Assembly: GCA_041665325.1 (NCBI GenBank)
Contig: JBAYJB010000002.1
Span: 28,674 to 92,673, forward strand
Source of the DNA: Minisyncoccota bacterium
GTDB lineage: Bacteria; Patescibacteriota; Minisyncoccia; Phycocordibacterales; PALSA-1337
Reading direction: 5' to 3'
Length of the DNA: 64,000 nt
Within the stretch, counting starts at the first letter, position 1. Each line of letters starts with the position of its first letter. Below, piece after piece: positions 53,301 through 56,300 of this stretch. The position numbers were made by a program.

Positions 53301-56300
53301 CCACTACGAGGTCGTGCCGGCCAATGTGGCTCTAGAGATTGCCGAAAAGAGGAAATCTTAATATTTGCTTACTAACAGGTTTGACTAACCACTGTCTCTA
53401 TGAGACAGTGGTTTTGTATGGGATCAATAAGCGACATTTTCGTCAAAACATACGCCAAAAGGCTTATTCTTTGGGCTATTTTGCTTATAGGTATTTTCCT
53501 ATTCCTGCCTCGTCCGGCCCATGCGCAGTATTATGGCGGCGCACAATATGGTGGTTACTTCATCCCGAACTTCTATCGGCCGCCCACTTATCAGCCGCAG
53601 CCGACCCCGCAACCATATCCGTATTTTCCGACACCTTCGTATCCTAATTATTTCGGATACCAGCAGTATCAGCCATACTATTATCAGCCTCGCTACAATA
53701 CACCATACCACCCGCCGGTCCGTCCTTGGTATCCGCCGACATATCCGGTACCGAACAATCCTACGCCGAACACCCCCGTTCCTCCCAATGTTCCGGCTTC
53801 GCTATCCGCCACCTGCTCCTCGTCGGGCGCTACTGTCTCGATCCAACAGCCGGTCTATTGGCTGGCGACCGGAAGTGGCGGCGTGACCGGCTCGTACACT
53901 TACCACTGGAGCGTCTACGGCGATGTCGTATCGTACGGTAACGGCGGCAATCTCCGATCGCAGAACATCTCGGCGACATACGCCACGCCGGGTATCAAGC
54001 AAGCCGCTCTGCGACTATCTGACGGCTTCAATACTGTCATGGCGACCTGCTCGGTGACGGTGACGCCATAAGCGGCCTCCGACAGCTTCGAAAAACCCAA
54101 AATTTGACACCGCAAATGGGTATGCTATCCTAGCCATTACGCGCTTAACAGCGTTTTTATTATCTATTAACAACATTATCTTTGGCTTTTGGTCTCTGGC
54201 ATTCACGCCTAGAGACAAAGAGCCAAAGCACTAAAATAATATGGCAGCAGAATTCAATCGCACCAAGCCGCACGTCAACGTCGGCACCATCGGTCACATC
54301 GACCACGGCAAGTCTACCCTGACGGCCGCTATTGTCGCAGTTCAGGCCAAGAAGGGTTTGGCCACAGCCAAGGCTTACGCTGATATCACCAAGGGAGGCA
54401 CCGTCCGCGATGCCACCAAGACTGTCACCATCTCGCTCGCTCACGTCGAGTACGAGAGCCCGAACCGTCACTACGCTCACATCGACGCCCCGGGTCACGC
54501 TGACTACATCAAGAACATGATCACCGGCGCCGCCCAGATGGACGGAGCCATCCTCGTGGTATCCGCCACTGACGGCGTGATGCCCCAGACTCGCGAACAC
54601 ATCCTCTTGGCCGGTCAGATCGGCGTGCCGAAAGTGATCGTCTTCCTCAACAAGTGTGACATCGTTCCGGAGAAGGACCTCATCGACCTCGTGGAGGAGG
54701 AAGTGCGTGAACTCCTCACGAAGTATAACTTCGATGGCAAGAATGCCCCAGTCATCCGTGGCTCTGCTACTGGCGCCCTTGAAGGTAAGCCAGAGTGGAC
54801 TGCCAAGATCGATGAGCTCATCACTGCTCTCGACACATATATCCCGGAGCCGAAGCGCGATGCTGACAAGCCGTTCCTCATGCCGATCGAAGACATCTTC
54901 TCGATCGAAGGACGCGGTACGGTCGTCACCGGCCGCATCGAGCGCGGTACAGTCAATGTCGGCGATGAATGTGAGATCATCGGCTTCCGCGACACTACCA
55001 AGACCACCATCACTGGTATCGAGATGTTCAACAAGTCTCTCAAGTCAGGCATCGCCGGAGACAACGCAGGCCTGCTCTTGCGCGGTACGGCCAAGGACGA
55101 TGTGTCCCGCGGCCAGGTCCTCGCCAAGCCGGGTTCCGTCAAGCCTCACACCGAGTTTGAGTCCGAGGTTTATGTCTTGAAGAAAGAGGAGGGCGGTCGC
55201 CACACCCCGTTCTTCACCGGTTACAAGCCGCAGTTCTACATCCGCACGACTGACGTCACGGGTGAAGTGACTCTCGCCGAGAAAGTAGAGATGGTCATGC
55301 CGGGAGACACCGTGACCTTCAAGGTCAAGCTCGTTGCCCCGGTCGCTCTCGAAGCCCAGATGCGTTTCGCCGTCCGTGAAGGCGGCAAGACTGTCGGTTC
55401 CGGAGTCGTCACCAAGGTCATCGCCTAAATAAGTTCATTCCCAAGAATATGGCAACCACAAAAGAAACCAAGAAGCCGGCCCACGTTGCCAAACCGGCCG
55501 CGGAGAAATCCGCTCGTTCTCGGAAAGCCAAGATTGACGGTGAAGTATCACATCTTCGTATCCGCGTTCGTGCTTACGAACACAAGATCCTCGATGCGTC
55601 ACTCCGCCAGATCATGGACACGGCTGCCCGCTATGATGCGGTCATCCACGGTCCAGTGCCGCTGCCGACCGAGATCAAGAAGTACACGGTCAACCGCTCT
55701 TCATTCATCGACAAGAATAGCCGCGAACAATTCGAGATGCGCGTGCACAAGCGCCTTGTAGACATCATCAACCCGAATCCCAAGGTGATCGAGGCTCTCA
55801 CGAATATGTCCTTGCCGTCAGGCGTGAACATCGACGTGAAGATGATGTAGGCAAGAGCCGCGAGTGAGTTATTTGAAAGAACTGTAGCGGAGACTTTTCG
55901 GGAACACTTCGGAGGGATTCGCCAGCAGGCGAATCCCGAGAATAGCCCAGCGCCTGCAGGCGCTGGAGCGTGTTCTAGAAAAGCCTCCGCTACAGTTCGT
56001 ACGGAATCACAATCATGAAATTCATCATTGGAAGAAAGCTGAATATGACCCAGGTCTTCAACGAGACTGGTACCGCCATCCCGGTCACGGCTGTAGCCGT
56101 GCGCGGCAATATCGTCACCCAGGTCCGCACCAAGGACACCGACGGTTACGAGGCCGTCCAGGTCGGCGAGGGTACACGCAATCCGAATAGGATCAACAAG
56201 CCGCAAAAGGGCCACTTCAAGGATCTGGGCAGTTTTGCCACGCTCCGAGAATTCCGCATGGATGCACCGGCCATGAAAGTAGGCGACAAAGTCGAGCTCT

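Follow-up and report, generated by a model that had tools for sequence, protein, structure and literature searches.

RNase III sites in messenger RNA (mRNA), such as the early-mRNA sites of phage T7, rpsO-pnp and the stems flanking rRNA, are intercistronic hairpins with about two helical turns of near-perfect duplex and a small internal loop, in which the sequence is free while the pairing is kept. Correia/NEMIS, ERIC and REP-type elements are transcribed inverted-repeat inserts of about 100-150 nt that form long hairpins in operon spacers; these families occur in many copies, their terminal repeats are conserved and they come with target duplications. In REP elements the hairpin stabilises the mRNA upstream of it. 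Correia elements are both bound and cut by RNase III (PMC2649163). The intervening sequences (IVSs) of 23S rRNA (helices 25/45) are sporadic, sequence-variable, stem-forming hairpins inserted in a ribosome-related transcript; they are removed by RNase III, and short insertions without open reading frames (ORFs) occur in rRNA genes of the candidate phyla radiation (CPR) (PMC11270868). Template switching creates and maintains hairpins, homogenises and enlarges their arms and inverts the enclosed spacer (PMC8794818, PMC8604942, PMC13100816). In E. coli, the rpsJ-rplC pair is translationally coupled (PMC12548453) and L4-regulated (PMC12548453, PMC3616713), and the S10 leader that mediates L4 autoregulation lies upstream of rpsJ with defined L4-responsive helices. 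Here we analysed a 64,000-nt stretch of a Minisyncoccota genome (contig JBAYJB010000002.1, positions 28,674 to 92,673; the window), in which the 164-nt spacer between rpsJ and rplC (55851-56014) holds a long nested hairpin.

Comparison with related genomes showed that at least three lineages (the species of the window and two relatives labelled L142 and L085) share this element from a common ancestor, in which it was inserted or expanded within an older spacer by the rpsJ stop. Since then both helix arms have changed together, and the apical hairpins have undergone duplication, extension or reordering. We tentatively favour the view that it is a clade-restricted palindromic insertion with arms evolving in concert, transcribed as a hairpin and a plausible substrate for RNase III or for mRNA stabilisation.

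The nested hairpin between rpsJ and rplC

The spacer follows the rpsJ stop codon, which ends at 55850, and runs up to the ATG of rplC at 56015, exactly the 164 nt given in the original prediction. All parts of the hairpin are given on the plus strand. The closing helix is formed by 29-nt arms (55879-55907 and 55970-55998) that are 90% complementary and make 26 pairs, arranged as 14 perfect pairs, an A.C mismatch (55893/55984), 6 pairs, a 2x2 internal loop (55900-01/55976-77) and 6 pairs. A perfect closing helix of 12 bp had been proposed; the 12-mer ACTGTAGCGGAG is present at 55881-55892 with its complement at 55985-55996, but this is one base off the implied position and the helix is longer. 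The 5' strand of the outer helix spans 21 columns (55879-55899, partner 55978-55998), of which those of the basal GAA are conserved and 13 in the middle are hypervariable between lineages. The GG of the internal loop (55900-55901) faces TA (55976-55977), and the inner closing helix GAACAC (55902-55907) pairs with GTGTTC (55970-55975). The whole 3' strand of the closing helix (55970-55998) reads GTGTTCTAGAAAAGCCTCCGCTACAGTTC.

Two apical hairpins are enclosed by this helix. Hairpin A pairs GGGATTCGCC (55914-55923) with GGCGAATCCC (55928-55937) over 10 bp around the loop AGCA, while hairpin B, CCAGCGCC-TGCA-GGCGCTGG (55947-55966), has 8 bp and is a perfect 20-nt palindrome as DNA. Perfect stems of 8-9 bp with these two loops had been described. 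The apex of B, CGCC-TGCA-GGCG, is a near repeat of the apex of A, CGCC-AGCA-GGCG. On both sides the stem is bordered by single-stranded sequence: a conserved 5' flank, GAGTTATTTGAAA (55866-55878), which is ancestral spacer sequence, and a 3' flank, GTACGGAATCACAATC (55999-56014), which reaches the rplC start and holds no Shine-Dalgarno sequence.

The nested hairpin is real and far beyond chance, in agreement with the original prediction that so much pairing would be unlikely by chance. The minimum free energy (MFE) of the plus strand was -88.2 kcal/mol compared with a shuffle mean of -47.6 (z = -10.3), and 0 of 200 shuffles folded as well. The minus strand folded nearly equally (-85.9 kcal/mol, z = -8.9). 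With -0.54 kcal/mol per nt, compared with -0.07 to -0.37 elsewhere, the spacer was the most structured intergenic region of the window, and the element was also the longest inverted repeat of the whole 64 kb.

Distribution and concerted change of the arms

The host is a Patescibacteria (CPR) metagenome-assembled genome (MAG) of the Paceibacteria/Parcubacteria group, and the closest L3 proteins among GTDB genomes came from Taylorbacteria, Paceibacterota and other Patescibacteria MAGs. Four contigs with identical L3 carry the same spacer. Among them, L082 and L083 differ by two substitutions, one turning the A.C at 55893/55984 into G-C, which gives 21 uninterrupted pairs, and the other lying in the internal loop. 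Two more distant carriers were found: L142 (S10 95%, L3 94% identical), with a 127-nt spacer (MFE -65.3 kcal/mol, z = -8.7), and L085 (L3 95%), with a 199-nt spacer (MFE -94.8 kcal/mol, z = -9.6). The element was absent from six relatives with spacers of 23-69 nt, namely L086, L087, L138, L140 and L141 (84-87% L3 identity) and L143 (97% S10-core identity); L090 (L3 90%) was counted neither way, its contig beginning 35 nt before rplC. The rpsJ stop codon is TAG in every carrier and TAA in every non-carrier. Among GTDB species representatives retrieved through L3, the best of which was 69% identical, spacers ranged from 5 to about 1470 nt and none was similar to the element; the long ones hold unrelated hypothetical ORFs. 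The element is thus not missing from all relatives, but is present in the closest ones and only in them.

The 13 nt directly 5' of the stem (GAGTTATTTGAAA) are identical in the window and L142, and are partly kept in L085 (TTTGA) and in the outgroup L143 (TTATTTAGAAA), which has no element. On the 3' side, GTTCGTAC comes after the stem in both the window and L142, and CTTCGTGC takes this place in L085; TCACAATC of the window 3' flank resembles TCACCATC in the non-carriers L140 and L141. Since parts of the flanks are recognisable in non-carriers, the flanks represent the old spacer and the hairpin the insert. The helix register is equal in the three carriers (21 columns, the 2x2 loop, then 4 pairs). 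Together, the shared flanks, helix register and TAG stop point to one ancestral event and not to independent mobile-element insertions.

The original prediction had also raised a small mobile inverted-repeat element. We strongly doubt that a miniature element of the REPIN, Correia or ERIC type inserted by chance between rpsJ and rplC. Its size of about 120 nt and long terminal inverted repeat would suit such an origin, as would the GTAG/CTAC within the window copy's arms; RNase III acts on Correia elements that lie in operons (PMC2649163), and the interior of L085 aligned better to its counterpart as reverse complement (score 32) than forward (21), which could mean insertion in either orientation. 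However, the arms and hairpin A each occurred once within the 64-kb window. A stretch of 64 kb is, by estimate, a substantial fraction of a typical CPR genome. A scan of JGI metagenomes with the interior pattern common to two lineages, in a collection that includes a sample holding the host organism, returned 44 matches; 43 were chance matches without similarity beyond the pattern, and the 1 real match was the same rpsJ-rplC spacer on a contig of the same organism. No match to the element was obtained by BLAST in plasmid and phage collections, and scans of viral contigs gave chance matches alone. No target-site duplication was seen between the 5' side (...TTTGAAA) and the 3' side (GTACGG...). 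Moreover, the supposed terminal repeats wholly differ between lineages while the flanking spacer and register are conserved, which is the opposite of a miniature inverted-repeat transposable element and fits one ancestral event. Unlike the Correia/NEMIS, ERIC and REP families, the element occupies one orthologous site with unconserved arms, and a REP-like scatter over unrelated sites was seen neither in the window nor in the JGI pattern scan. A covariance model built from the arms alone (R1) found L142; the apical inserts of the window and L085 were too long for it to bridge, so its negatives are uninformative.

We then compared the arms of the three lineages. The base of the helix is GAA/TTC in all of them, followed by about 13 hypervariable yet complementary columns (CTGTAGCGGAGAC in the window, TGGTGACTGGTGC in L142 and AGCGAAGTATGCA in L085) and by a segment that is TTYTY/RRRAR throughout. 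The 2x2 internal loop occupies the same columns with differing bases (GG/TA in the window, GA/GA in L142, TC/TC in L085), and the helix inside it is GGAA/TTCC in L142 and L085 and GAAC/GTTC in the window. In an ungapped alignment of the arms alone, standard pairs made up 98% of 100 cells and 15 of the 25 pairs had changed on both sides, whereas pairing dropped to 36-49% when the partners were slid by 1-3 columns. The arms were 50-52% identical between lineages, compared with 62-73% for the third codon positions in rplC and rpsJ on either side.

Arms that outpace synonymous sites and yet remain complementary are hard to fit with stepwise compensatory mutation under selection, whereas concerted evolution of inverted-repeat arms predicts them. 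The simplest mechanism would be concerted arm evolution at the DNA level via intrastrand template switching. Template-switch hairpins and quasipalindrome correction share with the element perfect arms, simultaneous two-arm changes, stems grown from loops and a reordered or inverted enclosed segment (PMC8794818, PMC8604942, PMC13100816); template switching is also consistent with the nesting of the apical hairpins, which look like loops turned into stems, and with their reordering. Unlike a functional class, template switching is a mutational mechanism, and pure homogenisation would erase the mismatch-containing loop that persists here. The locus provides a clean natural case of arms that outpace synonymous sites but stay complementary between lineages sharing 94-95% L3 identity. 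It bears on the origin and upkeep of RNA stems, whether through template switching or through compensatory mutations made step by step, and on the weight that covariation statistics deserve as proof that an RNA has a function. It also shows the usual nature of structures that look too perfect, namely young palindromic inserts.

The apical domain is variable: L142 has one 26-nt hairpin, the window two, and L085 one simple and one compound hairpin. The 26-nt hairpin of L085 is identical to that of L142 at 17 of 26 positions. The window and L085 have their hairpins in different orders, which may reflect either an inversion or gain and loss of hairpins. Although the L085 interior scores higher as reverse complement, its flanks and first hairpin match L142 in the forward direction. 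The apexes repeat CC[A/T]GC[A/T]GG, with CGCC-WGCA-GGCG in the window. As a signal of its own, the motif CCWGCWGG was rejected: the window holds 8 matches compared with 4.2 expected, six of them outside the element, and the two outlying matches that were inspected (61757 and 61814) lie inside a coding gene.

Searches of Rfam gave no family in the spacer. At gathering score over the whole window, nothing was reported there; at E<=10 over 55700-56150, only four chance-level matches appeared (snoRNA, lncRNA, fluoride), with no leader and no ribozyme; and in 18 related loci, nothing was found in the spacers. It is hardly credible that the element is an independent small structured RNA gene or a self-cleaving ribozyme built on a three-way junction. 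Its three-helix junction and strong folding z-score would be in keeping with one, but no Rfam family, ribozymes included, matched at E<=10, the junction strands and hairpin number are unconserved, L142 with its single apical hairpin has no three-way junction, and the element has neither a promoter nor a terminator of its own. A novel class of non-coding RNA was likewise not supported. Of the four candidates first put forward, with no preference among them, the results leave two as plausible: an RNase III-type processing site, or no more than a new structured element.

The same searches bear on the proposal of a relocated ribosomal-protein autoregulatory structure, in which L4, L3 or S10 would bind the element and repress rplC and the downstream genes, as an analogue of the E. 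coli S10 leader. The position directly upstream of rplC-rplD in a ribosomal-protein operon speaks for it, as do the conserved flanks, the conserved UUYUY/GGAA region with its internal loop, and the coupling and L4 regulation of rpsJ and rplC in E. coli (PMC12548453, PMC3616713). The E. coli leader shares with the element its operon neighbourhood and a structured RNA near rpsJ and rplC; the element, in contrast, lies downstream of rpsJ. No Rfam leader model matched it, in the cmscan comparison that had been suggested as a check, and relatives at 84-87% L3 identity manage with spacers of merely 23-69 nt. In addition, proteins usually recognise the helix sequence and the apical hairpins, and here neither is conserved among carriers; long perfect duplexes are also atypical of rRNA mimics. 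We consider such a leader very unlikely, and with these results the idea that CPR bacteria have a relocated S10/L4-type leader, attractive as it was, falls away.

Transcript setting and predicted RNase III processing

The genes are ordered tuf-rpsJ-[164 nt]-rplC-rplD-rplW-rplB on the plus strand. In 54000-57000, the sole sigma70-like promoter match scoring 10/12 starts at 54104, upstream of tuf (54241-55428, EF-Tu, Pfam GTP_EFTU), the first gene of the likely transcription unit. The terminator scan of 55851-56014 returned nothing. Because a promoter-like site was found upstream of tuf alone and no terminator in the spacer, the element probably lies within the tuf-rpsJ-rplC mRNA. As promoter candidates, -35-like TTGAAA/TTGACA sequences in the 5' flank were rejected; they have no matching -10 and gave no promoter call.

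Could the hairpin instead divide a tuf-rpsJ unit from an rplC operon, as an attenuator or a terminator without U-tract? Canonical hairpin-plus-U-tract terminators do stand right after rpsJ in several other Paceibacteria (L021, L023, L045, L033 and L037), and since terminators follow rpsJ there, the rpsJ/rplC junction is an operon boundary in some relatives. Here, however, the stem is followed by GTTCGTACGG with no T-run, the terminator scan was empty, and the promoter that would be needed downstream was not found between stem and rplC. The 23-49-nt spacers of the closest relatives are also too short for a terminator plus a promoter. We give little credence to this explanation.

Among the gene starts in 54200-58800, a Shine-Dalgarno-like GGAGG precedes none of tuf, rpsJ, rplC, rplD, rplW and rplB, and their upstream regions are A-rich and unstructured, which suggests initiation of the operon genes independent of Shine-Dalgarno sequences. 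Once folded, the element leaves 28 + 16 nt unpaired from the rpsJ stop to the rplC start, inside the 23-69-nt range of the non-carriers. Pairing would also keep the insertion from disturbing the unstructured rplC initiation region.

As RNA, the element is predicted to form one self-contained hairpin, in which an uninterrupted duplex of about 21 bp is followed by the 2x2 internal loop and then by 4-6 additional pairs. The coaxial double-stranded RNA (dsRNA) of at least about 20 bp that marks an RNase III site is present as 21 uninterrupted pairs in L082/L083, L142 and L085, while the duplex of the window consists of 14+6 pairs around the A.C mismatch, the 2x2 loop and then 4-6 more. Such a long perfect duplex fits an RNase III-type processing site. 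The consequence at the RNA level would be generic and not sequence-specific, two turns of perfect dsRNA being an RNase III substrate, and cleavage would divide the transcript into a tuf-rpsJ segment, its 3' end protected by the remaining half-stem, and an rplC-distal segment. If RNase III does cleave the duplex, this would give a first indication of the way in which Patescibacteria cut the mRNAs of ribosomal-protein operons into segments. The gene for RNase III, rnc, is kept in at least 90% of CPR genomes (PMC12641178). Such cleavage would resemble that at the RNase III sites of polycistronic phage mRNAs and in the Correia elements of Neisseria operons (PMC2649163), as well as the excision of IVSs from rRNA (PMC11270868). 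Compared with the mRNA hairpins, the element occurs in few lineages, and that its arms outpace synonymous sites points to arm conversion in the DNA more than to classical selection acting on RNA. Compared with IVSs, which sit inside rRNA helices, it lies in an mRNA spacer between protein genes, and no sequence similarity was found.

Several points weigh against our interpretation. RNase III processing is a prediction from the geometry of the helix, and no RNase III signature motif (rnc) was found in the 64-kb window. Knowledge of the structure guided the arm alignment, so that the paired fraction is inflated, and the alignment covers three independent lineages (the window species, L142 and L085). 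The in-genome copy count covers the 64-kb window, so low-copy diverged copies elsewhere are possible. The strands show no consistent preference: the minus strand is favoured in L085 (-102.9 compared with -94.8 kcal/mol), whereas in L142, with seven plus-strand G.U pairs, the plus strand is favoured (-65.3 compared with -48.2 kcal/mol), as it is slightly in the window. With opposite biases in these two carriers, selection at the RNA level is not demonstrated. Moreover, unchecked homogenisation does not predict the persistent internal loop, so that some selection or incomplete conversion must be assumed.

Finally, a functionless DNA-level palindrome fits almost as well. It would have been born by template switching and kept perfect by arm homogenisation, as a harmless self-folding insert without any RNA role, an explanation we regard as possible though less likely. 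The faster-than-synonymous divergence of arms that stay complementary agrees with it, as do the varying number of apical hairpins, the absence from all relatives at <=87% L3 identity and the literature on how template switching maintains hairpins. The stems of the window and L085 are almost purely Watson-Crick, and their minus strands fold about as well or better. On the other hand, the 2x2 loop is kept at the same columns with different bases in three lineages, the register is conserved, and the minus strand of L142, with its 7 plus-strand G.U pairs, folds much worse. A highly expressed mRNA with a 21-bp perfect duplex would also be unlikely to evade RNase III where the enzyme is present. The persisting loop and register, the conserved flanks, and the G.U pairs and plus-strand bias of L142 suggest some constraint beyond mutation.

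A more specific role was also considered, namely a newly evolved cis-acting device of CPR mRNAs without Shine-Dalgarno sequences. The duplex would bring the rpsJ stop to the rplC start for shunt-like re-initiation, or RNase III would set the ratio of EF-Tu/S10 to L3-L2. We judge this improbable. Were it true, selection for pairing, and not arm conversion alone, would explain the conserved register and internal loop, and the locus would offer a dated example of template switching giving rise to a regulatory RNA structure de novo.

Other features of the locus and the window

Other rpsJ-rplC spacers also hold structures and inserts. In the non-carriers L140 (1452-1500) and L141 (574-622), a small hairpin of 7-9 bp, GACCGCG...CGCGGTC, lies about 12 nt upstream of rplC, and in L141 an A-to-G difference makes a plus-strand G.U pair in it. 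The small hairpin may represent either an analogue of the large element or its precursor. Unrelated, very stable long hairpins were seen in the rpsJ-rplC spacers of other Patescibacteria (L019, 2893-3000; L031, 2679-3000; L040, 2805-3000), the one in L031 with an 18-bp perfect stem lengthened by further pairs. In L005, L017, L033 and L037, inserts of 0.9-1.5 kb with hypothetical ORFs occupy the junction. No Rfam family was found in these hairpins and inserts of other Patescibacteria. The idea that the spacer is a general hairpin hotspot of Paceibacteria was rejected, as perfect inverted repeats of at least 12 nt occurred at 0.68 per kb in it compared with 0.98 per kb elsewhere.

The gene rpsJ (55449-55850, plus strand, stop codon TAG) encodes an S10 protein of 133 aa; its N-terminal extension of about 30 aa (55449-55550) is rich in Lys and Ala and hypervariable among relatives, and a 7-aa indel in it separates two strains with identical L3 (L082 2414-2836). 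The strains L081 and L082 differ by merely about 0.5% from rpsJ on, while the region upstream of tuf (53015-54240; L081 1-1226 compared with L082 1-1205) is strongly diverged with many indels. Upstream of tuf, 53400-54071 encodes a Pro/Tyr-rich, secreted-looking protein of 223 aa without Pfam match. The gene rplC (56015-56623, plus strand) encodes L3 of 202 aa. An antisense ORF of 339 aa on the minus strand (55631-56650) runs across the spacer and the whole of rplC; it is almost certainly spurious and could mislead gene calling.

Further downstream, the S10/spc cluster is split by about 4.4 kb (58772-63047) between rplB (57805-58659) and rpsS (63146-63496). The insert holds genes for an HlyD-like adaptor, a MacB-type ABC ATPase and a MacB_PCD/FtsX permease, with a histidine kinase on the opposite strand, and in L087 a similar efflux cassette directly follows rplC. 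The ribosomal-protein operons of this clade seem unusually open to insertions. Elsewhere in the window, an AdoCbl-II (cobalamin) riboswitch aptamer was recognised by Rfam on the minus strand at 9628-9698 (43.8 bits against a gathering score of 36.5), and three tRNA genes are clustered at the start of the window (20-90, 696-768 and 1303-1373).

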